Source: Candidatus Nanohalarchaeota archaeon (GTDB lineage: Archaea > Nanohalarchaeota > Nanosalinia > Nanosalinales > JAFCCC01). Taken from it: 64,000 nt of DNA. Each line of letters opens with the position of its first letter. The stretch's first letter is position 1. The stretch spans positions 94,570-158,569 of the forward strand of contig JAFCCC010000002.1 in assembly GCA_017610385.1 (NCBI GenBank), read 5' to 3'. The position numbers were made by a program, and so were the translations under genes. Of the stretch, positions 26,687 to 54,218 are shown one piece after another. The notes under the pieces were generated by a model. It did no database searches and was not told the DNA's origin. It was given only the letters and a program-made list of their open reading frames with translations.

Positions 26687-26727
26687 CAGGGCTGCCGAGC
26701 AATTGCATTTAACATCGGGATTATACG

Positions 26728-26832
26728 AAGTTCAAATCCCCTCGTAAGAAAAATCTCCCTCGACTTGTCAGAGTTGGAGATTTTTTGATACAGAGTTGGG
26801 ATTTGAATTTGGGTCGAGAGCCTGCAAGGCTC
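26728..26832. other. nested inverted repeat / candidate structured RNA in the nth-deaminase spacer
   Basis: A 13-bp outer stem pairs 26728-26740 with 26798-26810. A 10-bp inner stem pairs 26749-26758 with 26776-26785. A further hairpin lies at 26818-26832. The outer arms look like tRNA T-arm sequence (GTTCAAATCCC). Confidence 0.4.
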
Positions 26833-26871
26833 GAGCCGTATAAGCCATGTTAAATCCGCCTTAGTAGTGTT

Positions 26872-27288: not shown

Positions 27289-27441
27289 TTTTCGGAAACT
27301 CAAATTGGATATAACAATTTATATACGTAATTTTATATCTAATTTAAGTGTATAAAACTATATGGGCGAACTTGAAACGTTGAATTTGGAATTCTTTTAT
27401 CTATCTGATCTTTAGAATGCTGGGAGACGAGATTCAAACGC

Positions 27442-27545
27442 AACTGCGGTCAGTTGCATCAACACGTAAAACTCTTACGAGTTTTCCTAACTTGTGAACA
27501 AAATTCACAAGCACAGCGGATTACTGCGTAACTTACTTCACTTTT
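27442..27545 (-). repeat. W element copy 1 (three-hairpin, about 104 nt), inverted relative to copy 2
   Basis: The 59-nt core 27458-27516 is the reverse complement of 35309-35367 with one mismatch. The flanks are homologous but diverged. Confidence 0.85.
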
Positions 27546-27572
27546 CGCTTAAGCCTTTTGTTAAAAAGGCTT
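27541..27572 (-). repeat. Z hairpin unit (aagcctttt..aaaaggctt + aagcgaaaag), downstream of tRNA-Leu
   Basis: The reverse complement matches 46626-46657 at 30 of 32 positions. Both differences fall in the loop. Confidence 0.85.
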
Positions 27573-27576
27573 ATTT

Positions 27577-27659
27577 TGCGAGGGACGAGATTTGAACTCG
27601 CGGACTCCTACGAGACTAGGCCCTCAACCTAGCGCCTTTGACCACTTGGCTACCCCCGC
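27577..27659 (-). tRNA. tRNA-Leu (anticodon GAG), class II, no intron
   Basis: Hand-folded. Acceptor is GCGGGGG/CCCTCGC and the D arm is GCC-AAGTGGTCAAA-GGC. The anticodon stem CTAGG/CCTAG carries loop TTGAGGG. There is a long variable arm, the T arm is GCGAG-TTCAAAT-CTCGT, and the discriminator is A. Confidence 0.9.
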
Positions 27660-27724
27660 AACTGAAACGCCAGCTGGTACCAACAGCGAATTATTAATAT
27701 AACTCATTTTCATTTTCAGTTTAA

Positions 27725-27755
27725 TTTTCGCTTAAACCTTTTACTGAAAAGGTTT
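27725..27755 (-). repeat. Z hairpin unit, upstream of tRNA-Leu
   Basis: The reverse complement aaaccttttcagtaaaaggtttaagcgaaaa matches 46565-46595 at 28 of 31 positions. One difference is a compensatory G-C to A-T stem change. Confidence 0.8.
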
Positions 27756-27842
27756 AGAATAAGAAGGAATATTAATCTTTCTTTATTGCTTTTTTCGTGT
27801 TTTATACAAATTTATAATAACTCTATTAGCCAATTTTTGAGT

Positions 27843-29204
27843 ATGCCGTTTGAAGAAACTAAAAAGTTGGAAGGTCATGAAGAACAGGTTTTCATAAAAA
27901 GAATTTTAGTTTCATTATCTCTTGCAGTTGTTTCTTGGGTTTTAACTCCGGGTCTGATTTATGAACAAAGAATTGTTCTTTGTATAACTGTCTTAAGCGT
28001 ATTATTGTGGGCGACTGCGGCTATTCCGTTATATATCACATCTTTGCTTTTGCCGATCTGGTTAACGTTATTTGGACTTTATTTGCCAATTAAAATTTTG
28101 CCTTTGTTTTTTGATCCAGTAATTGTTCTTTTATTGGGTGGATTATTAATTGCAAGAGCGATGCATAATCTAAAATTAGATGAGAAAATTGCTATAACAT
28201 TGGTTTCTTTGGCTACGAATACAAAAAATATTGTGATATTTTTGATGATTACAACAGCTTTTCTTTCAATGTGGATGTCCAATACAGCTACAACCGCATT
28301 AATGCTTCCTATAGGAATAGTTCTTTTGAAGAAATTAAAATTGGAAACCAAAATTTATGCGAAAGTTGTGGTGTTGGGTATTGCGTTTGCAGCGAATATT
28401 GGAGGAATTGCTACCTTAGTTGGCTCTCCGCCGAACGCATTAACTGCTGGCTTTTTAAAAGAATTAACTGGGAATGTAATTACTTTTGGAGGGTGGATGA
28501 TGTATGCCTTGCCTCTAACTATATTATTATTACCTATTTGTTGGAATTTATTGTGGTATTGGTTTAAACCAGAATTTAAAGAAGTACAAATTAAAAAAGA
28601 AAAATTTAAAATAGGAGGGAAAGAAAGAATTTTTAGTTTAATTTTCTTCTTGACAATTGTGGCTTGGTTAACTACTCCACTTCATGGAGTTTCTAGTTCA
28701 ATTATTGCTTTAGGATCTGCTATTATACTTTTACTTCTTAGATTCATTAAAAAAGAAGATTTAAGTAAGATTAGCTGGTCCACCTTGTTTTTGGTGGGTG
28801 GAGGGCTAATTCTTGGCCACGCCATTGTTGAATCCGGATTATCAAAAAGTTTTATTCAGTTATTAGGTAATAGTTTACTTACTCAACCATTATGGATTAT
28901 AGCTTATGGCTTAATTGCAGTTGCAATGTTCTGGGGGGTTTTTATTTCTAATACTGCTGCGGCTGCGTTAATTGTTCCTTTAATTATCCCACTATCTGCA
29001 CTTTTGGGAGTTAATCCTATAATTTACGCTGTATCAGTAGGGATCGCTGTCTCATTAACTTTTATTTTTCCAATAGATACGCCTCCATTGGCCCTGGCTT
29101 ATGCTACGGGGTATATAAAAATTAAAGATATGCTGAAAGTTGGATTAGTTATGACTTTGATTTCTTTAATTTTGGTTGGGTTGTTTGCTTTATTTATTTG
29201 GTGA
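27843..29204 (+). CDS. DASS/SLC13-family (ArsB/NhaD superfamily) anion:sodium symporter
   Basis: Polytopic membrane protein with duplicated hairpin motifs SNTATTALMLPIG and SNTAAAALIVPL. ATG 27843 preferred over the TTG at 27786. Confidence 0.8.
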   Translation: MPFEETKKLEGHEEQVFIKRILVSLSLAVVSWVLTPGLIYEQRIVLCITVLSVLLWATAAIPLYITSLLLPIWLTLFGLYLPIKILPLFFDPVIVLLLGGLLIARAMHNLKLDEKIAITLVSLATNTKNIVIFLMITTAFLSMWMSNTATTALMLPIGIVLLKKLKLETKIYAKVVVLGIAFAANIGGIATLVGSPPNALTAGFLKELTGNVITFGGWMMYALPLTILLLPICWNLLWYWFKPEFKEVQIKKEKFKIGGKERIFSLIFFLTIVAWLTTPLHGVSSSIIALGSAIILLLLRFIKKEDLSKISWSTLFLVGGGLILGHAIVESGLSKSFIQLLGNSLLTQPLWIIAYGLIAVAMFWGVFISNTAAAALIVPLIIPLSALLGVNPIIYAVSVGIAVSLTFIFPIDTPPLALAYATGYIKIKDMLKVGLVMTLISLILVGLFALFIW

Positions 29205-29281
29205 GGTCCGAGTACTCGGATATCTTGATTTTATTGGCTTTTAGAAATATTTATAAGAATACTACCACTTATAAATAATAA

Positions 29282-30007
29282 ATGCCAGAAAATACGGTAG
29301 ATGATGTATGGAATGCCTTTAAGGTTGATGACGTATGGAATGCCTTTAAGGTTGATCTTTCTAGAAGAGATTGTCCAGTAGGTTTAACTCCGAAGAAATT
29401 CGAAGGTGGAGAATTAATCTATGGTCCAGAAGATGCAGATCAAATTCTATATCTTATTTCAGGGTATGCAAAAGGAATAAAATATGGTGGGAGGGTTCTT
29501 ATCGTGGATATTTTTGGTCCTGCCACAATTATCGGCGAATTAAGAATACCAGAAGCTCATGAAGAAATAGAATATCAGACATTAATCAGAGGAACATATG
29601 AATCTGCATCTTTAACAGATTTTAAAATATTTTTAGCAAATAATCCAGAATATGTTTTTCCATTATTGGTAAACAATTTAAGAAATTCTAATAACTTTAT
29701 TAATAAAATATCTCATTTCGACATGGAGCAAACTTCAAAAAGGATTTCTTACATTTTAGGTGAATTAATGGATTGTTTTGGAGAACAAACAGATAGAGGT
29801 ACAATACTTCCGTTTCCAGTAACACATGAAGAAATAGGTCAATTAATAGGGCGTGCTAGAGAAAATGTTACTCTAGAATTAAATAGATTAACCGAATATG
29901 GAATTGTAGACATAAAGAGGAGAGATATTGCAGTTATAGACCTTGAAAAATTGAAAAGTTGGCCAAATTTGTCTAAATCAAAATTTAAAGAAACCTATCA
30001 ATCCTAA
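29282..30007 (+). CDS. Crp/Fnr-family transcriptional regulator
   Basis: Contains a cNMP-binding-like beta-roll (YLISGYAKG...GELR) and the C-terminal HTH THEEIGQLIGRARENVTLELNRLTEYGIV. Confidence 0.8.
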   Translation: MPENTVDDVWNAFKVDDVWNAFKVDLSRRDCPVGLTPKKFEGGELIYGPEDADQILYLISGYAKGIKYGGRVLIVDIFGPATIIGELRIPEAHEEIEYQTLIRGTYESASLTDFKIFLANNPEYVFPLLVNNLRNSNNFINKISHFDMEQTSKRISYILGELMDCFGEQTDRGTILPFPVTHEEIGQLIGRARENVTLELNRLTEYGIVDIKRRDIAVIDLEKLKSWPNLSKSKFKETYQS

Positions 30008-30148
30008 AATTAATGTAAGTAACCCTATTGCCAACAATAGATGACCAAGCCAATCATCTTTAACGTGTTTGTTTGTTAGAAGTGTATGTGCGTATTTTAC
30101 TATTCCTAAAAAAATAGGTATTGCAGTCAACAGAATTCTTGCATCCAT
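29978..30148 (-). CDS. possible small two-TM membrane protein (56 aa)
   Basis: ORF below the track cutoff: MDARILLTAIPIFLGIVKYAHTLLTNKHVKDDWLGHLLLAIGLLTLILGLIGFFKF. Its 3' end overlaps the Crp gene end on the opposite strand. Confidence 0.3.
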   Translation of the reverse strand: MDARILLTAIPIFLGIVKYAHTLLTNKHVKDDWLGHLLLAIGLLTLILGLIGFFKF

Positions 30149-30234
30149 GGTAAAAAGTTAACTTCTGTTGTTTAAATAATTTAATAAAATAAAAAAAGGA
30201 AAAGAGATGATTTGATTATTTTGTTCCTCTAATC

Positions 30235-30432
30235 TTAATCTTTTGTTTCTATGATCTTAATTGCACCAACAGGACATGCTGCTTCAGCATCTTTGTTGCA
30301 TCCAACAACATCTAGATTTATCTCTATTGGATTTGACTTTCCTTCTGAGGTCATTTCCCAATTATTTGGACAAATTGCAGCACAAGAACCACAACCAATA
30401 CATGCTACTTTGTCGTGTTTTATTACAAACAT
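30235..30432 (-). CDS. small 4Fe-4S ferredoxin
   Basis: 65 aa carrying CIGCGSCAAICP plus a distal CPVGAI. Confidence 0.8.
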   Translation of the reverse strand: MFVIKHDKVACIGCGSCAAICPNNWEMTSEGKSNPIEINLDVVGCNKDAEAACPVGAIKIIETKD

Positions 30433-30467
30433 AATTTCACCTTCTTCTAGTATGGAGTTGCGCGCTA

Positions 30468-30767
30468 TTAATAGTTTGTGGGTCTGGGCAAATAATCAGA
30501 GTCTAATTTCATCATAAGTTCGTCGTATATTCCTTGTACGGGATTTCTGAACTTGGAACCGTGTTGCTCAAGAAATTGCGTGGCCAATACTCCACAAAGA
30601 TATGGTTGCGCAAAACCAATAACACCTAAGGCTGCAGCAGAAAACAACATTGATTCAGAAGAAAGTACATGGGTTGTTATCTCAAACGAAGTATCTGAAA
30701 CTGCACCCAGTACATTCTTAATAATATCTAAAACAACCATTTGAATCACTAAATTCCCCAGAACCAA
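30468..30767 (-). CDS. hypothetical protein upstream of the ferredoxin
   Basis: 99-aa ORF co-directional with the ferredoxin gene; no motif recognised. The plus-strand ORFs here look like antisense artefacts. Confidence 0.4.
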   Translation of the reverse strand: MVLGNLVIQMVVLDIIKNVLGAVSDTSFEITTHVLSSESMLFSAAALGVIGFAQPYLCGVLATQFLEQHGSKFRNPVQGIYDELMMKLDSDYLPRPTNY

Positions 30768-30830
30768 CCCATTAGAATATAGTATTAGATAGAATATAAA
30801 GATTCTATAAAGAAATCCTAAGGTATAAAA

Positions 30831-30842
30831 ATTCTATAGAAT
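30831..30842. promoter_or_regulatory. perfect 12-nt palindrome attctatagaat upstream of the hydrogenase genes
   Basis: Perfect dyad 63 nt upstream of ATG 30905. A related attctata motif lies at 30802-30809. It could equally be TATA-like promoter sequence. Confidence 0.2.
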
Positions 30843-30904
30843 AGTGCTGAAGCAACAGATTGACAGTAATAAAAGTAATATACTCAGAGATTTAATTTAG
30901 CTTT

Positions 30905-31642
30905 ATGCAAAAAAAACCGTCATTAGGCTTTTTCTCATTCACCGGTTGCTCTGGATGTGAATTTACTGTTTTGTTTATTGATGGCATATTAGATATTCTA
31001 GATAAATTTAATATAGAATATTTTCATTTGCTGAAAGAGAAAAATAGAGAAGCGCAATATGATTTGGCATTTGTTGAGGGTGCAATAACAACTAAAAGAG
31101 AGATTGAAAAACTAAAACGAATTAGAAAACAAAGCAAATTTTTAGTTGCAATGGGTGCCTGCGCTACTCACGGAGGAATTCCGATTCAACGAAATTTTAT
31201 TGAAAAAAAAGAATTACAAAAATATGTTTACAATCAAAAAATGTTGAAAGATTCTATTGATGTTGCGCCGATAGACAAATTCATCAAAGTGGATCATTAT
31301 TTATATGGATGTCCAATCATTAAATCAGAATTTATTGAGTTTATTGAGGCATATTTGAAAGGTAAGAAAAAAGAACAGTTTAAAGGGCCAGTTTGCATGG
31401 AATGTCCTAGAAGAGGTAAAGACTGTTTCTTGAACCAAGGGATAGAATGTCTTGGATCTATCACGCAAGGAGGTTGTAAGGCGCTTTGTACATCTCAAAA
31501 TGTTCCTTGTACTATGTGTAGAGGACCTTTAGAATCTGCAAATTTCCCTGTTGAAATTAAGCTTTTAGAATCTTTTGGGCTGAGTAAAAAAGAAATATTA
31601 AATAAATTAAGATATTTTACAGATAAGGTGAAAAGCAAATGA
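30905..31642 (+). CDS. [NiFe]-hydrogenase small subunit (cytosolic group-3-like)
   Basis: Contains FTGCSGCE and GACATHGG proximal-cluster motifs. A C-terminal Cys-rich region (CMECP..C, C..GGC..C, C..C) could bind further clusters. It overlaps the large-subunit start. Confidence 0.85.
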   Translation: MQKKPSLGFFSFTGCSGCEFTVLFIDGILDILDKFNIEYFHLLKEKNREAQYDLAFVEGAITTKREIEKLKRIRKQSKFLVAMGACATHGGIPIQRNFIEKKELQKYVYNQKMLKDSIDVAPIDKFIKVDHYLYGCPIIKSEFIEFIEAYLKGKKKEQFKGPVCMECPRRGKDCFLNQGIECLGSITQGGCKALCTSQNVPCTMCRGPLESANFPVEIKLLESFGLSKKEILNKLRYFTDKVKSK

Positions 31643-32913
31643 AAAACATTAAATTAGATCACGTAACGAAAATAGAAGGACACGCGAAATTACATGTTAT
31701 CATTGATAAAGGAAAAGTAAAAAAAGCGGATTTACAAGTATTTGAAGGTTCTCGTTTTTTTGAGGGCATTTTAAAAGGAAAGAGATATGATGATTTAAGT
31801 CCTATTTCTTCTAGAATTTGCGGGGTTTGTTCTGTTGTTCATGCAATAACTGCATTAGAGTCTGTTGAAAAAGCAATGGGGGTTAAAGTATCTAAACAGA
31901 CTAGAAAATTAAGACAAGTAATGAATATTGCAGGGACACTTCAAAGTCATACGCTTCATTTATATTTCATGGTTTTGCCAGATTATTTTGGTTTTTCAAA
32001 TGCGTTAAAACTAGCTGCAGAGAATAAAGAGTTAATTGTAAGAGCACTAGATTTGAAGCGGTTTGGAAATAGAATTGTAAGAGCAATAGGGGCTAGAGAT
32101 GTTCATCCGTTCACGTTCGTGGTTGGAGGGATTTCTAGATCTCCAGAGCAAGAAGAATTGGATTCTATTTTACAGGAATGCAAAAAATTAATTCCTGCAG
32201 GTAAAAAAACAATGGAACTTTTTGCTAAAATTAAAGTTCCAGATTTTGAATTAAAAAGAAATTATTATGCACTAACAGGCGGCAATTATTTTTGTGGCGG
32301 AGATAAAATAACTTGTTATTCTAATGAAGAGATTTCAACTCAGAAATATGAAAATCATGTTTCAGAATATTTTCAAGAAGGAAGTACCTCGGAATTTGTA
32401 ATGGATAAAAAAGGAAACAGTTACATGGTCGGAGCGATGGCTAGAATACTAATTAAAGGAAATCTGCTTTCTGAAGAATCAAGAAAATATCAGAAGATTA
32501 TTGAAAAAAATAAATTTAATCCTTTTTATAATAATTTAGCTCAGGCTATTGAAATTTTTGAATGTTTGAAACAGATTGAGAAAATTTTGACAAATTTTAA
32601 AGTTAAAAAGGAGTTACCTATTAAATTTAAAGAGAAAGCGGGGAATGGTATTGGCGCATTCGAAGCGCCCAGAGGTATTTTATTCCATAGATACACCATT
32701 GATAAAAACGGATTTTGCACTAGTGCAAATATAACTACTCCAACTTCCCAAAGCTTACAAAATTTACAAGAAAATATCAGAAATTTCTTACCTAAAATTG
32801 TAAATCAAAGTGAAGAAAAAATAAAATTGATGGTAGAAGAACTAATAAGAGCGTATGATCCATGCATATCTTGTTCTACACATTTTTTAGAATTAAAATT
32901 AGAAAGAAAGTGA
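31639..32913 (+). CDS. [NiFe]-hydrogenase large subunit
   Basis: Contains the N-terminal RICGVCSVVH (RxCGxCxxxH) and C-terminal DPCISCSTH (DPCxxCxxH). Nine residues (FLELKLERK) follow the His. Confidence 0.92.
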   Translation: MKNIKLDHVTKIEGHAKLHVIIDKGKVKKADLQVFEGSRFFEGILKGKRYDDLSPISSRICGVCSVVHAITALESVEKAMGVKVSKQTRKLRQVMNIAGTLQSHTLHLYFMVLPDYFGFSNALKLAAENKELIVRALDLKRFGNRIVRAIGARDVHPFTFVVGGISRSPEQEELDSILQECKKLIPAGKKTMELFAKIKVPDFELKRNYYALTGGNYFCGGDKITCYSNEEISTQKYENHVSEYFQEGSTSEFVMDKKGNSYMVGAMARILIKGNLLSEESRKYQKIIEKNKFNPFYNNLAQAIEIFECLKQIEKILTNFKVKKELPIKFKEKAGNGIGAFEAPRGILFHRYTIDKNGFCTSANITTPTSQSLQNLQENIRNFLPKIVNQSEEKIKLMVEELIRAYDPCISCSTHFLELKLERK

Positions 32914-32918
32914 GAGCG

Positions 32919-33299
32919 TCATTCTACCGAACAGTCTTGTAATAGTTCTAGTACGTCTGATTTAATCTTAGAAATATTGCCTTTTTGAGGAACCCCAATA
33001 ATTCTTATTTTGTCAATGTTGCCCATATCTTTTAACAGGTTTAGGAAAAAGGCCACATCTAAGTCATGCGTCGTAATAGAACTTACTTGCTCAAATTCTT
33101 CTAGACTGTTAAATAATTTTACTTTATGTAAATTTTTGACAACATCTACAATAACAAACTCTTCTCGAAATTCGATTTGTTCGAGTGTGTTAACTTGATT
33201 AAATTCAAAGGAACCTTTCAGAGATTTCATTACTCTTAAAGCTAAATTATCTTCTTTGAGAAATCCATTTCCTAAAACATATATTTTCATTATATTCAC
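32919..33299 (-). CDS. hydrogenase maturation endopeptidase-like protein
   Basis: 126 aa with VLGNGFLKEDNLALRV, VIVDVV and THDLD in the HycI/HyaD-like order. It sits next to the large-subunit gene. Confidence 0.6.
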   Translation of the reverse strand: MNIMKIYVLGNGFLKEDNLALRVMKSLKGSFEFNQVNTLEQIEFREEFVIVDVVKNLHKVKLFNSLEEFEQVSSITTHDLDVAFFLNLLKDMGNIDKIRIIGVPQKGNISKIKSDVLELLQDCSVE

Positions 33300-33319
33300 T
33301 TAGTCACTTTTCACCGTAC

Positions 33320-34222
33320 TCACTCAGTTACAAATGTGCTTTTTATTCTTCCAATTTTATAAGCACCAATTAAGATTAAAAAGGATCCCAAAAGAGGTAC
33401 TATTCCAAGAGGTTCTTTGAAAATCAAAATTCCCAGAATTAAAGAAATTACTGGCGCAAGCAATAAAAAACTGGTTGCTTTTGAAATATCAATTAATTTT
33501 ATGCTCCAATACCAGCAGAAAACATATGCAAATAAGAGTGCTGTGGATATTATTATTTTGATTATTTGGGCTGAGTTTAATTGCAATAATAAATTAAATT
33601 TCCCAAAAATACCTATGACTCCGAAAAGCACTATTGCCCCGATAAACATTCTTGAAAAAGAAATTATCCAATTGCTCTCCCCTTTGTTCATTGCTTTTTT
33701 AGATATTGTAATTTCAATTGCCCACAAAAATGTGGCGCCCAATATCAGCAAATCACCTAATTGTGGATTTGAAAAAAATTCTGTTGGATTAATTTTTGTA
33801 AACACAATAAAAATAATTCCGATAAACATTGCAAGTAAATATGGCAAATATTTTTTCACTTTTTCTTTTAAGAAGAAATAAGCTAGTCCAAATGTAAAAA
33901 AGGGTAAAGTTTTATGCAAAAATGCCGCTCGCCCACCAGTTGTTAATTTTAGACCGCTGAAGAATAATAGAAAGGCTAAACCACCACCAATTATTCCTAT
34001 AGCCAATAAATACTTCCATGAAACGCTGTTAAATCCTTTAAAACTAAATTTGTTACTGTAAAAACATATAATAAAAAAAACAAGACCGATAAACAGCGCT
34101 CGAATTGCTGTGAATAAAAATGGATCTATTGTTGCTACAAAGAACTTATTTGCAATAATCGAAACACCGCTTATTATTGCAGTTAAAATTGCAAGCAGAC
34201 TTCCAAGAGTTTCGTTATTCAT
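33320..34222 (-). CDS. EamA/DMT-family transporter
   Basis: Roughly 10 TM segments in two EamA-like halves. Its start overlaps the upstream gene's stop. Confidence 0.75.
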   Translation of the reverse strand: MNNETLGSLLAILTAIISGVSIIANKFFVATIDPFLFTAIRALFIGLVFFIICFYSNKFSFKGFNSVSWKYLLAIGIIGGGLAFLLFFSGLKLTTGGRAAFLHKTLPFFTFGLAYFFLKEKVKKYLPYLLAMFIGIIFIVFTKINPTEFFSNPQLGDLLILGATFLWAIEITISKKAMNKGESNWIISFSRMFIGAIVLFGVIGIFGKFNLLLQLNSAQIIKIIISTALLFAYVFCWYWSIKLIDISKATSFLLLAPVISLILGILIFKEPLGIVPLLGSFLILIGAYKIGRIKSTFVTE

Positions 34223-34764
34223 AACGGTATATTATCATAGGTCATTAAAATATGTTTTAATTTGGAATAATTTTTCTCAGAAATTTTTTCTATTGCATTA
34301 TCATAGTGAATCGTAATCAAATCATTGACTTTAAATTCATCTAAAAATTCTGATTTCACCTTCCTTTCACCAAAAAGTGTTTTAACAGTTAATTCAGTAG
34401 AGTTGGTGGCTATAATTTTTGCAGGCAAAACTAAACAGCGTTTTACATTAAGATCTCCAAAATCTGCGTTTCTATCTAAAACCACTGCTGCGTGCATATC
34501 CCAAAAATAGGTGTGTAGGATTTCTTTGTCGATTTTTTCTTTTCCTTGTTTTTTTGCTAGAACAAGAAGATTTCCTGTTGCAAATGGCCAGATTTCCTGT
34601 AAATCTTTTTCAATTTTCTCTTTTTTAGTTACTTTGTCTTCTAATTCATCGAGAAAGTTTTGGGTTATGTTCCCTCGCTGAACCAAAACACACCCACAAG
34701 GAACCGCATATCTAAGAAATAATTGCTCGGTTTCAGAATCTGTAAATTTAATCATCTGAATCAC
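34219..34764 (-). CDS. HypC-like domain protein with a 109-aa N-terminal extension
   Basis: The C-terminal CLVLPAKII...NDLITIHYDNAIEKISEKNY parallels HypC (MCxxxPGxI...VLVHVGFA...I.E.EA). The N-terminal region is unrecognised. It is translationally coupled to hypC and to the DMT gene. Confidence 0.55.
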   Translation of the reverse strand: MIQMIKFTDSETEQLFLRYAVPCGCVLVQRGNITQNFLDELEDKVTKKEKIEKDLQEIWPFATGNLLVLAKKQGKEKIDKEILHTYFWDMHAAVVLDRNADFGDLNVKRCLVLPAKIIATNSTELTVKTLFGERKVKSEFLDEFKVNDLITIHYDNAIEKISEKNYSKLKHILMTYDNIPL

Positions 34765-34970
34765 TCATTTGCACTAGCATATAATTCGATAATTTTTTCA
34801 GCTTCCTCTCTTTTTAAGATTTGAACAATTTCCTTTTGAGAAACTAAGACATAATCATTCAATTTTGGTTTTAAAATTAGGACTCCTGCCTCTCTTTTTA
34901 ATCCAGAATAGTCTACAATAACTGAATCATCTTTTAGTTCAATCACTTTTCCAGGAATTGCCATACACAT
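34761..34970 (-). CDS. hypC: hydrogenase assembly chaperone HypC
   Basis: Carries MCMAIPGKVIEL. The start is set at the Met directly preceding the essential Cys. The ORF track starts 3 codons earlier. Confidence 0.8.
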   Translation of the reverse strand: MCMAIPGKVIELKDDSVIVDYSGLKREAGVLILKPKLNDYVLVSQKEIVQILKREEAEKIIELYASANE

Positions 34971-35068
34971 TTTAATCAATTAATTATATTTTCTTTCTAA
35001 TTACTCTCTTTGAAGCATAGTATAAACTATATTATTTTTTAAGAATTTTTACTATTAATAAGATGATG

Positions 35069-35160
35069 TCCGAACGCTCGGATGCCTGCAAAATCAGGCA
35101 ACACTTTGGGCTACACTCATTTCGTGAGGCAACCTTCACAAAAGTAACCGGCAAATCAGA
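35069..35160. repeat. cluster of short hairpins in the hypC / tRNA-Tyr divergent spacer
   Basis: The hairpins are tccga-acgc-tcgga, tgcctg-caaaat-caggca and ctca-tttcg-tgag. The first 14-mer recurs reverse-complemented at 46506-46519. Confidence 0.5.
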
Positions 35161-35280
35161 GAACACTTAAAGATGGTTTTGGTTTCATCTCAAGCACATA
35201 TTTAAAAACTTATTTGAAAAAGGAAGTATAGTAAGTTGCTCGCAATTACGCTTTTTAGATAGAAAGTATAATTTAAACTA

Positions 35281-35383
35281 AAAAGTGAAGTCTGTTGTGT
35301 ATAACCGACTGTGCTTGTGAATTTTGTTCACAAGGTAGGAAAACTCGTAAGAGTTTTACGTGTTGATACAACTAACTGTAGTT
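35281..35383 (+). repeat. W element copy 2, ending exactly at tRNA-Tyr nucleotide 1
   Basis: See copy 1. The hairpins lie at 35314-35334, 35338-35359 (GTAA loop) and 35370-35383. Confidence 0.85.
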
Positions 35384-35562
35384 TCCCGACTTAACTCAAT
35401 GGTAGAGTGTCCGGCTGTAGACTTTGGACGCCGCAAACCTTCAAAGGTTTGTACCGGGATGTTCCCGGTTCGAATTAGCCCTTTGTACAGGCAAGCGTAC
35501 AAAAGCGTTAGCAGAAAGTACGCTTCCGCAAATGAATGGTTACGAAAATCCGGGAGTCGGGA
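35384..35562 (+). tRNA. tRNA-Tyr (anticodon GUA) with two introns (anticodon loop 37/38 and T-loop)
   Basis: Hand-folded. Acceptor is CCCGACT/AGTCGGG and the D arm is ACTC-AATGGTA-GAGT. The anticodon stem is TCCGG/CCGGG with loop CTGTAG|A. The T stem is CCCGG/CCGGG with TTCGAAT. Intron 1 is about 35420-35451 and intron 2 about 35475-35549. Confidence 0.85.
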
Positions 35563-46505: not shown

Positions 46506-46830
46506 TCCGAGCGTTCGGATAAGCTTTTTGCACAAAAGTAAAGGCGCAAAAATCTTAAGCAAATAAGCCTTTTTAGTAAAAGGCTTAAGCGAAAATTAAA
46601 CAGCGAGTTACGAGTATAACTCACTAAGCCTTTTTAGTAAAAGGCTTAAGCGAAAAGAAAATGAGCTTTTCAGATAAAAGCTCACGGAAACTTGTTAAGT
46701 TTCCTAAATCGGAAATTAATGCATTTCCAATTCAAGCAAAATAAGCGTTTTGCACAAAAGTAAACGTGCAAAAATCTTAAGCAAAAATACGTTACCACCA
46801 AGCGTTTTTAAAGAACGGTTTAATCCAAAT
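46506..46830. repeat. array C of back-to-back hairpin modules
   Basis: At least nine consecutive stem-loops. They include the 31-nt Z unit twice (46565-46595, 46626-46656), block Y (46663-46746) and block X (46743-46798). Confidence 0.85.
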
Positions 46831-48129: not shown

Positions 48130-48221
48130 AAATATATTTAAGGTGAGTGATCATTTATTAATTATCCATACTTGCCCTAAACGAAACCTTTAAAAATTCA
48201 AGCACAGAATGGTTACAAAGT

Positions 48222-48432
48222 AAGCCTTTTTAGCGAATAAGCTTTTTGCACAAAAGTAAACGTGCAAAAATCTTAACCAAAAATACGTTACCACTGAGCT
48301 TTTCAGATAAAAGCTCACGGAAACTTGTTAAGTTTCCTAAATCGGAAATTAATGCATTTCCAATTCAAGCAAAATAAGCCGTTTAATAAAGGCTTAAGCG
48401 AATAAGCTTTTCAAATAAAGGCTTAAGCAAAA
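48222..48432. repeat. array D of hairpin modules upstream of tRNA-Asp
   Basis: Contains a truncated Z unit (48222-48233), block X (48239-48294), block Y (48296-48379) and two degenerate Z-like hairpins (about 48375-48432). Confidence 0.85.
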
Positions 48433-48473
48433 TAAAAACAAAAATCCTAAACCCAAAATTAAAAATAGATGAT

Positions 48474-48608
48474 GCCTCGGTAGTGTAGTGAAGTTTATGT
48501 CTTTTTGACAAACTCTATAGGCCCATCATACACGCCTGTCAATCCGCAAAAGAAGGAGCTTTGTGGAACAGATCGCGTGTGACACGGGTTCGACTCCCGT
48601 TCGAGGCG
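48474..48608 (+). tRNA. tRNA-Asp (anticodon GUC) with two introns (D-loop and anticodon loop 37/38)
   Basis: Hand-folded. Acceptor is GCCTCGG/TCGAGGC. The D region GTGT-AGTG[30-nt intron]GCCCATCAT matches the archaeal tRNA-Asp D-loop. The anticodon stem is CACGC/GCGTG with CTGTCA[32-nt intron]C. The T arm is ACGGG-TTCGACT-CCCGT. Confidence 0.85.
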
Positions 48609-49223: not shown

Positions 49224-49667
49224 ATGAATATCTGGTTAATTTTTGTTTGGATATATGCCGCTATGTTTGCAATGTCTTTTTGGGAATCATATGTTGAAGG
49301 TAGAAAAGCGTGGACAAAAGGAAAACTTGGTTGGAAATGGAAAATAACTAGAAGGCTTTGTTTTGACGGATATCATTTTTATTTGGATATAATCATGTTG
49401 CCTTTGTTAATTATGCTTCCTTTAGTTGTTTTTGGATGGGATCAAAGGATTTTTGGAGTCTTACTCAGCGCATATTTTTCCGGAACAATAGTCGAAGATT
49501 TTGGATGGTATATAGTTAATCCAAAAGTTAAATTAAGAGAATTTTGGAGTTCTTTTTCAGATTATTATCCTTGGATTAAAATTGGAAAAAAGAAAATACT
49601 TCCTTGGGGGTATGTTATAGCAATTGTAATTTCAATTCTTTCTTGGTACTTTTTGTGGAGGTTGTGA
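49224..49667 (+). CDS. small integral membrane protein
   Basis: 147 aa with about four TM segments. Its stop overlaps the next start (TGATG). Confidence 0.6.
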   Translation: MNIWLIFVWIYAAMFAMSFWESYVEGRKAWTKGKLGWKWKITRRLCFDGYHFYLDIIMLPLLIMLPLVVFGWDQRIFGVLLSAYFSGTIVEDFGWYIVNPKVKLREFWSSFSDYYPWIKIGKKKILPWGYVIAIVISILSWYFLWRL

Positions 49668-51044: not shown

Positions 51045-51170
51045 GACTAAAAGTTTTAAGAAGCTTTTTAGTTGTATTTTAATTTTTATAGGTTTTGAAC
51101 TCTTTAAAGAAGTATGACTTTAAAGAAATTTCAGATGGTTTTATAAAGAGGTTTGGTCAAGTTTAATTTT

Positions 51171-51722
51171 ATGTGGTTTATTTGGACATTAATTGCCCTT
51201 GCAATTCTATTCGTAACTGCGTTTACTAGTTATTTTAATAAAATTGTTCGCTTTGAAAATAGGATAGATAATTCTTGGCAACAGATTGATGTTCAATTGA
51301 AAAAAAGGGCCGATTTGGTTCCTAATTTAGTAGAAACAGTTAAAGGATATGCTAAACACGAGAAGAAGATTATGGAAGAGGTTTCTACAGCTCGTGAAAG
51401 AATGGTGAATGCAGGAACTTTTGATGAAAAGGTTAAGGCAGGAAATGTTTTGGGAAATGCCTTAAGATCTGTTTTTGCTATCGCAGAAAATTATCCAACG
51501 TTAAAGGCTAATGAAAATTTTAAACAATTACAAGAAGAACTTTCTGCAATAGAAAATAAAATTGCATATGCACGACAACATTATAATGATTCTGTTTTAG
51601 TTTTTAATAATACAATTGAAACCTTTCCAGGAAACATTTTTGCAGGATTCATGAATAAAAAAGAAAGAAAAGGATTGGAAATAACAACTGCTGAAAGAGA
51701 ACTTCCGAAGGTTTCATTCTAA
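51171..51722 (+). CDS. lemA: LemA-family protein
   Basis: Contains an N-terminal TM segment, then W.QIDVQLKRRADL-type motif (SWQQIDVQLKKRADLVPNLVETVKGYAKHE), ENYPTLKANENF and AYARQHYNDSV. Confidence 0.85.
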   Translation: MWFIWTLIALAILFVTAFTSYFNKIVRFENRIDNSWQQIDVQLKKRADLVPNLVETVKGYAKHEKKIMEEVSTARERMVNAGTFDEKVKAGNVLGNALRSVFAIAENYPTLKANENFKQLQEELSAIENKIAYARQHYNDSVLVFNNTIETFPGNIFAGFMNKKERKGLEITTAERELPKVSF

Positions 51723-51731
51723 TTGGTTAAA

Positions 51732-52619
51732 ATGCTATTAGAAGAGCAAATTTCTTCAAATAAACGAAAATCTGTGTTCTTATTAATTTTCATTCCCGCG
51801 ATTTTGTTTGGTTTGGTTTATCTAATTGGGAGGTTCTTCTTTGCTGGAAATGTTATTCTATCGTGGTTCATTGGTTTTATTATTGTATTAGTATATTCCT
51901 TAAGTTCGTATTATGCCAGTGATCAAATGGTATTAAAAGCAGTTAAAGCAAAAAACGCGGATAAAATTCGGCATAAACGACTTTATGATTTAATGGAAGG
52001 TCTTTGTTTGGGTTCTGGAATGCCTATGCCTAAATTGTATGTTCAGAAAAGTGATATGATTAATGCTTTTGCGACTGGTAGAGACCCACAACACGGAAAA
52101 GTCTGTGTAACAACTGGAGCTATAGAGAAATTAAATAAAACAGAATTAGAGGGTGTTTTAGCTCATGAACTATCTCACATAAGAAATTATGATATTCGTT
52201 TTATGACCTTGATTGTTGCGATGGTTGGCGCAATAAGTTTGTTGGCAGCAATATTTTGGAGAGGAACCTTATATGGGGTTGGCAATAACAATAGAAAATC
52301 TCAGGGAAATGCCGCAATAATTATGTTAATTATTGGTGTAGCTTTTGCGATTTTGGCTCCGTTATTTGCGAAATTAATTCAACTAGCAGTTTCAAGAAAA
52401 AGAGAATATTTGGCAGATGCAAGCGGAGCTCATTTAACGAGATATCCCGAAGGATTGGCCTCTGCACTAGAAAAAATTAAAGGTGAAAATAAAAAAATGA
52501 AAGTTGAACAATCTGTTTCTCCCTTGTATTTTTCAGACCCGTTTAAGAAAAAAGTTAATAGTTTATTTGCAACGCATCCTTCAATAGATAAAAGAATATC
52601 TGCATTACGAAAAATGTAA
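51732..52619 (+). CDS. htpX: HtpX-like M48 zinc metalloprotease
   Basis: Contains HELSHIRNYD (HExxH), a downstream EYLAD, four TM segments and a C-terminal THPSIDKRI. Confidence 0.88.
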   Translation: MLLEEQISSNKRKSVFLLIFIPAILFGLVYLIGRFFFAGNVILSWFIGFIIVLVYSLSSYYASDQMVLKAVKAKNADKIRHKRLYDLMEGLCLGSGMPMPKLYVQKSDMINAFATGRDPQHGKVCVTTGAIEKLNKTELEGVLAHELSHIRNYDIRFMTLIVAMVGAISLLAAIFWRGTLYGVGNNNRKSQGNAAIIMLIIGVAFAILAPLFAKLIQLAVSRKREYLADASGAHLTRYPEGLASALEKIKGENKKMKVEQSVSPLYFSDPFKKKVNSLFATHPSIDKRISALRKM

Positions 52620-53952: not shown

Positions 53953-54054
53953 ATTATATCTACATAGAACAGAAACACATAATAATATAAATCCAATTAG
54001 TTACACATTGGATAAGGGCAATCTCATGCGAGATTTCCAGGTTTCAAAAATTTT

Positions 54055-54218
54055 GGGCTCGTAGCTCAGTTGGTAGAGCACCAGGCTTTTAACATGTTTT
54101 AAAAGCTCTGAGGTCAATTAGACCTGTGATTGGGAGTTACCTGGGTGTCGCGGGAAGTTTAAAAGTCAGATAACTATCGTTGGCTTTAAACTCGCGAATT
54201 CGAGCCCCGTCGGGCCCA
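54055..54218 (+). tRNA. tRNA-Lys (anticodon UUU) with two introns (anticodon loop 37/38 and T-arm 53/54)
   Basis: Hand-folded. Acceptor is GGGCTCG/CGGGCCC and the D arm is GCTC-AGTTGGTA-GAGC. The anticodon stem is CCAGG/CCTGG with loop CTTTTA|A. The T stem is GCGGG/CCCGT with TTCGAGC. Intron 1 is about 54092-54138 and intron 2 about 54155-54198. Confidence 0.85.

Follow-up and report, generated by a model that had tools for sequence, protein, structure and literature searches.

A duplicated hairpin element at two tRNA loci of a Nanohalarchaeota archaeon, and the small hairpin unit fused to one of its copies

Why should two inverted copies of the same hairpin-rich sequence stand beside two different transfer RNA (tRNA) genes? 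The question arises from a 64,000-nucleotide (nt) stretch of Candidatus Nanohalarchaeota archaeon (assembly GCA_017610385.1, contig JAFCCC010000002.1, forward-strand positions 94,570 to 158,569), a DPANN archaeon with multi-intron tRNAs; we call this whole stretch, which is 33% G+C, the window. The element, here named W, occurs in one copy downstream of a tRNA-Leu gene on the minus strand, W(-), and in another upstream of a tRNA-Tyr gene on the plus strand, W(+), and a 7.7-kb gene block lies between them. Judged by its sequence, W is a species-specific, duplicated leader or spacer element. The explanation we favor, to which we assign a probability of roughly 45%, is that W and a second hairpin unit, Z, would form a modular, structured, noncoding part of tRNA transcription units, with W(+) in the tRNA-Tyr leader and W(-) a paralog stranded at tRNA-Leu; most likely, the copies were left in their two places by local rearrangement and are not a DNA inversion switch. 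This model was assembled from the computed repeat, fold, substitution pattern, tRNA genes, fragment homology, and TATA-box spacing, and from these we infer that W is transcribed, where it is cut, and what its fold does.

BLAST aligned the two copies (27545-27442 on the minus strand and 35281-35383 on the plus strand) over 104 nt at 86.5% identity, with 13 mismatches and 1 gap (E = 7e-28), and a repeat search returned inverted arms at 27442-27523 and 35302-35383 (82 nt, 90% complementary). Together with a further alignment, these reproduced the repeat as it had been described in an initial annotation of the window, including its coordinates, a 59-nt core with a single mismatch (27458-27516 and 35309-35367), which BLAST stretches to 65 nt at 96.9% identity, and an 11-nt head, AAAAGTGAAGT, without differences between the copies. 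Repeat search and BLAST also bore out the fusion of the W(-) head with the tail of the Z unit that lies downstream of tRNA-Leu. No third copy was found in the window or in the ~9 kb added at either end of it (82 kb of genome), and the compared assemblies of three samples had 0 single-nucleotide polymorphisms within W. The parts of the two copies, with hairpins numbered hp0 to hp3, are as follows.

27442-27545, minus strand: W(-), with head 27545-27535, hp0 27532-27520, hp1 27511-27491, hp2 27485-27468, and hp3 27455-27442
35281-35383, plus strand: W(+), with head 35281-35291, hp0 35294-35305, core 35309-35367, and hp3 35370-35383
35314-35334, plus strand: hp1 in the W(+) core, with outer pairs 35309-11 / 35336-38
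35340-35357, plus strand: hp2 in the W(+) core, with a GUAA loop

The element had been introduced as one of three hairpins; the three named hairpins hold, but the total is four, as hp0 (35294-35305 / 27532-27520) is added in the diverged 5' part. The two core hairpins, hp1 (CUUGUGAA-UUUUG-UUCACAAG) and hp2 (AAAACUC-GUAA-GAGUUUU, with a GNRA loop), are perfect palindromes and fold as had been proposed, and none of 200 shuffled sequences was as stable as the core (z = -3.9). All 28 pairs form in both copies. The compensatory change reported earlier for the third hairpin is real (one double change in hp3, G-C to A-U), hp0 shows two one-sided compatible changes, and the hp3 stem of W(-) lengthens to ~10 bp by pairing into 27441-27438. 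When the observed number of substitutions was placed at random over all columns, only 0.06% of trials left every pair intact, as is the case for the 13 substitutions between the copies (simulated P = 0.0006); with placement in the W flanks only, the figure was 0.6% (P ~0.006). Substitutions are also depleted in the core (hypergeometric P = 1.4e-4). Because no substitution breaks a pair and substitutions avoid the core, W is likely to be under constraint, probably as RNA. Three G.U pairs make the fold stronger on the W sense strand, that is, reading toward the tRNA; this strand specificity favors constraint at the RNA level, although two sequences are no proof, and with n = 2 we regard the structural conservation as suggestive. 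A small open reading frame (ORF) through W (24 to 27 codons) was rejected, as the differences between the copies are nonsynonymous and the frame overlaps the tRNA; no coding potential was found nearby.

The plus-strand copy is the easier of the two to interpret, and its surroundings are listed here.

35201-35208, plus strand: predicted TATA box, TTTAAAAA, with a predicted start near 35231 (35231/2), G-UAAGUUGC
35231-35249, plus strand: start-proximal hairpin, GUAAGUUGCUCGCAAUUAC
35246-35267, plus strand: degenerate Z unit, upstream of W(+)
35385-35562, plus strand: tRNA-Tyr(GUA), with exons 35385-35420, 35453-35475, and 35550-35562 and two introns

Unspliced, the tRNA-Tyr gene was missed by both ARAGORN and Rfam; it was recognized only once both introns (32 nt at position 37/38 and 74 nt in the T-loop) had been removed in silico, and after splicing the product is canonical, a tRNA-Tyr(GTA) that has the C1-G72 pair typical of archaea. 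Immediately 3' of the gene lies a T-run terminator. The initial annotation had W(+) ending exactly at nucleotide 1 of tRNA-Tyr; the gene is genuine and lies directly downstream, but one U separates the end of W(+) at 35383 from the start of the tRNA at 35385. Because it sits directly 5' of a genuine tRNA-Tyr, this copy is best read as a 5' leader, as had been suggested. Only W(+) has, on its own strand, a start upstream, here deduced from sequence, and position +1 of a functional tRNA downstream, and it is predicted to fall inside a ~154-nt 5' leader of pre-tRNA-Tyr that opens with the hairpin GUAAGUUGC..GCAAUUAC.

The predicted start draws on a pattern seen elsewhere in the window. Upstream regions of protein genes have a TTTAWATA-type box ~25 to 35 nt before the ATG, and stable-RNA promoters have a TTTAAAWA box followed 21 to 23 nt later by UAAG at five sites:

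47510-17: TATA box of the 5S ribosomal RNA (rRNA) gene, with predicted start 47540, which is the mature 5' end
46490-97: TATA box of hairpin array 1, with predicted start 46520
48189-96: TATA box of hairpin array 2, with predicted start 48221
53985-92: TATA box of tRNA-Lys, with predicted start 54013
35201-08: TATA box upstream of W(+), with predicted start 35231/2

The shared TTTAAAWA-UAAG spacing suggests a conserved initiator context in this organism. By the same spacing, tRNA-Lys and tRNA-Asp have predicted leaders of ~40 nt and ~250 nt, both with hairpin modules, and the tRNA-Leu leader includes a hairpin. The similarity of W to other tRNA or 5S leaders was not significant. The predicted tRNA-Lys leader has a hairpin, AAUCUC-AUGC-GAGAUU (54019-54036), that resembles hp2 of W, with a compensatory A-U to U-A change and at a similar distance upstream of the tRNA; motif counts are within chance.

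Under the favored model, transcription would start ~23 nt after the TATA box at 35201-35208, and the transcript would pass through the UAAG-start hairpin, the degenerate Z unit, and the four W hairpins before running on into the two-intron tRNA-Tyr. RNase P, or whichever 5'-maturing activity the lineage uses, would cut at the junction of W and tRNA, the putative cleavage site, freeing W with the leader. Selection on the RNA fold would keep the hairpins, especially the 59-nt core, and the most likely role for W would be that of a compact, inert or protein-binding leader that stops a long 5' extension from disturbing the folding or splicing of an intron-rich pre-tRNA. Archaeal pre-tRNA 5' leaders and spacers handled by RNase P and tRNase Z are the closest familiar counterpart: like them, W(+) consists of noncoding hairpins between a predicted promoter and tRNA position +1 and ends at the predicted processing site. 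It differs in that the leader is unusually long (~154 nt) and built of repeat modules common to other loci, one of them duplicated at a second tRNA, and its processing is a prediction.

The minus-strand copy is set among the following features.

27576-27660, minus strand: tRNA-Leu(GAG), an intronless gene that directly precedes Z and W(-)
27541-27573, minus strand: Z unit, UAAGCCUUUUUAACAAAAGGCUUAAGCGAAAA, beginning 3 nt after the tRNA-Leu discriminator base, its tail fused to the W(-) head
27418-27441, minus strand: decayed duplicate of the tRNA-Leu 3' end, GCGTTTGAATCTCGTCTCCCAGCA, directly after W(-)

A tRNA 3'-end-like sequence had been claimed to follow W(-). It is indeed present, and its match is to the tRNA-Leu next to it, whose 3' end it shares at 17 of 21 aligned positions with one gap (GTTCAAATCTCGTC-CCTCGCA against GTTTGAATCTCGTCTCCCAGCA); both end in ..GCA, and there is no resemblance to tRNA-Tyr. 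Read from 27441 to 27418, the fragment is laid out as T-loop, 3' strand of the T-stem, and 3' strand of the acceptor. The degenerate Z before W(+) aligns weakly with the Z before W(-) (60 of 2000 shuffles score equally), and the sequence downstream of the fragment has no significant similarity to that upstream of W(+) (692 of 3000 shuffles). W(-) itself lacks a TATA box, the position 21 to 23 nt upstream of the Z start being the tRNA-Leu T-arm (GAGTTCAAATCTCG), and it could therefore be transcribed only by read-through from tRNA-Leu, past a T5 run in Z. In the favored model, W(-) would be a paralog of the Z-W unit caught between the tRNA-Leu 3' end and its decayed duplicate, and the arrangement would be a scar, left locally by duplication or insertion: a second W-tRNA unit may have lost the greater part of its tRNA, or an insertion may have duplicated the tRNA 3' end.

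The layout of the fragment, the T-loop introns present in this genome, and the relationship of the lineage to Nanoarchaeota, which have split tRNAs, raise the thought that W(-) and the fragment together make up the 3' piece of a trans-spliced tRNA with W as its leader. We consider this very improbable. The place at which a TATA box would be expected is taken up by the tRNA-Leu T-arm and holds no box, a matching 5' tRNA part was not found in the window and ~18 kb of flanks (82 kb), an insertion of 1 nt puts the fragment out of step with tRNA geometry, the intact tRNA-Leu next to it, which it resembles, needs no partner, and W also precedes a complete tRNA-Tyr. The split and permuted tRNAs of Nanoarchaeum, Caldivirga, and Staphylothermus (Chan et al. 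2011, PMC3218864) are similar in that a tRNA 3' piece stands behind a non-tRNA leader in a lineage rich in noncanonical introns; they differ in that for W(-) no promoter of its own, partner half, complementary trailer, or bulge-helix-bulge (BHB) motif was found, and in that the same leader precedes a complete tRNA.

A direct repeat of a tRNA 3' end around an insert is also the classic signature of archaeal integration (PMC3293823), and W might accordingly be read as the residual, attP-arm-like end of an integrative element, with the tRNA-Leu 3' end and the fragment as attL and attR and the palindromes as recombinase-binding DNA sites. In Caldiarchaeum, an intact tRNA and a tRNA fragment flank an insert, for which an integration/recombination model has been put forward (Sugahara et al. 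2012, PMC3293823); here, too, an intact tRNA-Leu and a decayed direct copy of its 3' end flank Z-W, and a second copy of the insert is found elsewhere, like region 'a' of that study. The perfect palindromes of hp1 and hp2 and the adjacency of the W 3' end to tRNA sequence at both loci fit the same idea. Yet the Z-W insert measures only 136 nt, with no element-sized cargo and no recombinase gene, the repeat is matched at 17 of 21 positions and is not exact, and the second copy lies at the 5' end of a different tRNA, so that neither the tRNA nor the tRNA end is the same at the two loci. An RNA fold accounts better than protein-binding DNA for the G.U pairs and the compensatory change, and a decaying relic should not hold a 59-nt core near-identical. 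Recombinase, transposase, integrase, invertase, and cas genes were all absent from the ORFs that were scanned (those of at least 120 amino acids) or Pfam-tagged, a set that leaves out the ORFs at 49224-49667 and 51153-52619. On this evidence, we think an integrative relic rather improbable.

The inverted orientation of the copies invites two further readings at the level of DNA. The initial annotation had suggested that W could mediate inversion of the block between the copies; the block encodes a Crp-type helix-turn-helix protein, and hp1 includes TGTGA-N7-TCACA, so that operators for that regulator may also be imagined. The inversion idea found no support: no invertase gene was found among the scanned ORFs, and the block is not conserved or syntenic in relatives. 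A check for both orientations gave only the arrangement of the window in three independent metagenome assemblies (L053, a 91-kb contig of sample 3300033144, and L054); the 91-kb contig was compared by gene spacing only, L054 covers only the W(+) side, and consensus assemblies could hide a minor orientation. The element does not look like a transposon or a miniature inverted-repeat transposable element, as its outer flanks (..caaacgc and tcccgac..) have no shared duplication, its best conservation is internal, and no transposase domain occurs among the scanned ORFs. A Crp/FNR operator was rejected: the half-sites stand 7 nt apart instead of 6, the motif is at chance frequency (16 matches against 10.9 expected), and the sites lie either inside the predicted leader or 285 to 355 bp from the nearest start codons, with a tRNA gene intervening on one side. 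A role of the inverted copies at the DNA level, as switch or operator, is the least probable of the readings we weighed.

Is W then a recognizable RNA with relatives elsewhere? Rfam (release 15) gave no family for W, over the whole window at the gathering threshold and at E values up to 5, and on both W loci at E values up to 10 with lax filters matches were at chance level only (best, Spy1786666, 16 bits against a threshold of 64 bits). A GTDB genome scan with an 18-mer from hp2 returned 49 loci, all of them chance matches and none extended by BLAST; scans of viral contigs gave two chance matches with hp2 and none with hp1; and a metagenome scan with a 21-mer across hp1 and hp2 gave 0 matches, which is weak evidence because same-species contigs from three Joint Genome Institute (JGI) samples are evidently not in that collection. 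A covariance model built from the two W copies (R1) found nothing else in the window and the 49 loci (387 kb in total). The homologs in the genome and its relatives to which the initial annotation had looked were thus absent from 82 kb of genome, 387 kb of related contigs, Rfam, and the k-mer scans.

These searches bear on a further alternative, that W is a stand-alone, trans-acting small RNA freed from tRNA precursors by tRNA-processing enzymes. Its conserved core, stable hairpins, and hp2 GNRA loop would suit such a molecule, and in Nanoarchaeum small RNAs are cotranscribed with tRNAs. However, the two copies share no C/D or H/ACA boxes (CUGA is confined to W(-), AACUGACC, and ACA to W(+), GAUACAAC), Rfam has no match to W, of small nucleolar RNA type or otherwise, the searched relatives have no homolog, no significant complementarity to neighboring RNAs, including the adjacent pre-tRNAs, was detected, and no tRNA follows W(-) to set its 3' end. 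We hold this to be improbable, placing it just behind the integrative relic. Of the RNA function that the initial annotation read from the structure, what stands is a structure conserved and constrained in both copies; a small RNA or a processing platform has no support in Rfam families, homologs, or pre-tRNA complementarity.

Several observations weigh against the model we favor. The significance of the fragment varies with the search space (6 of 2000 shuffles with a 42-nt target and 228 of 3000 with a 112-nt target), and an hp3 that ends 1 nt before the tRNA is not obviously a good substrate context for RNase P. With two W copies in one species there is no real covariation test, and the hairpins were drawn after both sequences had been seen. 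The near-identical core could be a recent gene-conversion tract and not a product of selection, but a single tract is insufficient because the identical 11-nt head is a second, separate block. Finally, W was found in no relative, and a conserved function therefore cannot be claimed. Intergenic comparison is impossible because even the next closest organism reaches only 58% identity in the hydrogenase, at a locus that is not syntenic: near-identical contigs of the window are present in three JGI metagenomes (samples 3300033144, 3300033145, and 3300033388), and beyond these the nearest homologs of the [NiFe]-hydrogenase are at most 58% identical and the gene block around them is not conserved. 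The best named relatives of the large subunit are Woesearchaeota and "Nanoarchaeota" metagenome-assembled genomes (47 to 54% identity), and a neighboring 372-amino-acid ORF is an orphan with 2 matches only.

The Z unit fused to W(-) proved to be far more widespread than W. A metagenome scan with the Z tail gave, besides many chance matches, ~35 loci with the full Z hairpin, UAAGCCUUUU-(3-5 nt loop)-AAAAGGCUUAAGCGAAAA, at 88 to 97% identity; the stem keeps its sequence and shows no covariation, whereas the loop varies freely. No Rfam family matches Z, and a hammerhead or pistol ribozyme was rejected, as there are neither core motifs nor an Rfam match. Z occurs in tRNAs, where BHB-type introns of the D-loop, anticodon loop, and T-loop have it from their first nucleotide, inside archaeal 23S rRNA with an enlarged loop (L130 and L165), and, on plasmid- or virus-like contigs, 10 to 12 nt upstream of start codons and ~15 to 24 nt after a TATA-like box, where the genes behind it encode a P-loop NTPase, an HGYHIYIY-motif protein, and a zinc-ribbon protein. 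The units in the window, the metagenome loci, and the intron positions found by in silico splicing followed by ARAGORN are given below.

27541-27573 and 27725-27757, both minus strand; 46564-46595, 46625-46656, and 48369-48433: Z in the window
L062, L074, L078, L091, L093, L105, L106, L113, L120, L125, L130, L132, L145, L159, L165, and L175: metagenome loci with Z, among others
L091 and L120: tRNA-Asp with a Z intron in the T-loop
L105: tRNA-Glu with a Z intron in the D-loop
L125: tRNA-Gln with a Z intron in the D-loop
L074, L093, L106, L175, L113, and L145: tRNAs of unsettled isotype with a Z intron in the anticodon loop

Four of the last group (L074, L093, L106, and L175) appear by eye to be Gly(CCC/GCC), and the commonest calls of ARAGORN were Trp for L175 and Pro for L113 and L145. 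Comparison of six Z-intron tRNAs showed exons that differ and a Z with its tail that is nearly invariant; we therefore take Z to be a widespread, constrained module marking the 5' ends of introns and transcripts. A short Z-like hairpin, CAAACCUU-CA-AAGGUUUG, is present in intron 1 of the window's tRNA-Tyr as well (35434-35451).

This distribution suggests another history for the tRNA-Leu locus, in which Z-W was once a BHB intron, or is a mobile hairpin module of the intron type. Specifically, tRNA-Leu would once have had a T-loop intron that started with Z and held W, the fragment would be the old 3' exon, a contiguous copy of the 3' exon would have come later and rid the gene of its intron, and W(+) would be a second copy of the module. 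Z starts metagenome BHB introns exactly at the 5' splice site in all three loops, T-loop Z-introns there end in a T-loop-like string before the 3' T-stem (compare ..GCGUUUGAAU followed by CUCGU here), and in a fold of the whole region the fragment can pair with the 5' acceptor strand of tRNA-Leu; joining tRNA-Leu to this distal fragment gives an acceptor stem with a bulge. Nevertheless, tRNA-Leu is complete, contiguous, and canonical without splicing or removal of the insert (54.8 bits, Rfam), no BHB motif was demonstrated, 16 nt (the proximal 3' exon and AAA) separate the T-loop from Z, unlike in real Z-introns, the closing 3' Z-strand copy usual in such introns (AAAAGGCUUG) is missing from W, and W(+) lies outside any tRNA. 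An intron origin seems to us unlikely, although it stands first among the alternatives, followed in order by the integrated relic, the trans-acting small RNA, the split tRNA, and the DNA-level role.

Fujishima et al. reportedly proposed in 2010 that BHB introns were transposed among the tRNA genes of Thermoproteales. The present case is alike in that near-identical Z units begin introns at different positions of different tRNAs and that W is fused to Z; it is different in that the lineage is DPANN, Z is not limited to tRNAs but is present in 23S rRNA and at the 5' ends of mRNAs too, and W was never seen in an intron. A bolder proposal, which we would call doubtful, is that Z-W belongs to an undescribed class of sequence-conserved DPANN hairpin modules that colonize stable-RNA genes and transcript 5' ends, with W a lineage-specific body on a universal Z head and the tRNA-Leu duplicate an insertion footprint.

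Elsewhere in the window, similar modules recur in two hairpin arrays (46516-46830 and 48216-48440), each starting ~23 nt after a TATA box. Besides Z units, they contain an 'A' unit (UAAGCUUUUUGCAC..GUGCAAAAAUCUUAAGC) and a 'B' unit of 90 nt, whose copies in the two arrays are 99% identical; one array precedes a 150-amino-acid ORF, and the other would form the ~250-nt leader of the tRNA at 48474. Two of the Z units are identical, and the 29-nt spacer that separates them (46596-46624) has its homolog in the 5' part of W(-). This Z-spacer-Z arrangement (46564-46656) was considered as a CRISPR mini-array and rejected on account of that homology, the presence of Z inside tRNA introns, and the lack of cas genes.

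Three of the four tRNA genes in the window (35385-35562, 48474-48608, and 54055-54218) have two introns each, at noncanonical sites in the D-loop and in the T-stem or T-loop as well as at 37/38. Rfam also finds the 5S rRNA and, with two long insertions each, the tRNAs at 48474-48608, which is tRNA-Asp(GUC) by eye, and 54055-54218, which is tRNA-Lys(UUU) by ARAGORN; with default settings, ARAGORN reported only tRNA-Leu(GAG) in the window and missed all three intron-bearing genes. The intergenic region at 26687-26871 has a tRNA T-arm-like string, GTTCAAATCCCCTCG (26730-26744), a terminator-like hairpin, and a second, G+C-rich hairpin (26807-26854) with a possible CUGCAAG loop; no match to a tRNA model was found in the region, which may be decayed or heavily disrupted tRNA material. 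In the strain of sample 3300033388 (L001), a 111-bp deletion relative to window positions 33307-33417 cuts off the EamA/DMT transporter gene at its 3' end and takes away the spacer that precedes the gene for the hydrogenase protease. The window encodes a split RpoB and archaeal ribosomal proteins; RpoA is a single 1186-amino-acid gene beyond the right end (L057, 11800-15360), and the EF-2 gene just beyond that end (L057, 21264 onward) has, by its Pfam tags, an intein with a LAGLIDADG domain.

In itself, W is of modest import. The related Nanoarchaeum equitans has leaderless tRNAs and does without RNase P; in contrast, tRNA genes of the present DPANN lineage carry long, modular, structured predicted leaders. 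The W(-) locus in addition keeps the footprint of a rearrangement at a tRNA locus, an intact tRNA beside a decayed copy of its own 3' end. The Z family is the more interesting of the two and merits a study of its own. If the proposed class of colonizing hairpin modules were real, such modules would be tolerated because RNA processing removes them, by BHB splicing in tRNA and rRNA and by end maturation in leaders, and by spreading they would provide one way for tRNAs to acquire introns. The ~32-nt Z is nearly invariant across many uncultivated archaea, and whatever recognizes it bears on the spread and persistence of archaeal tRNA introns.

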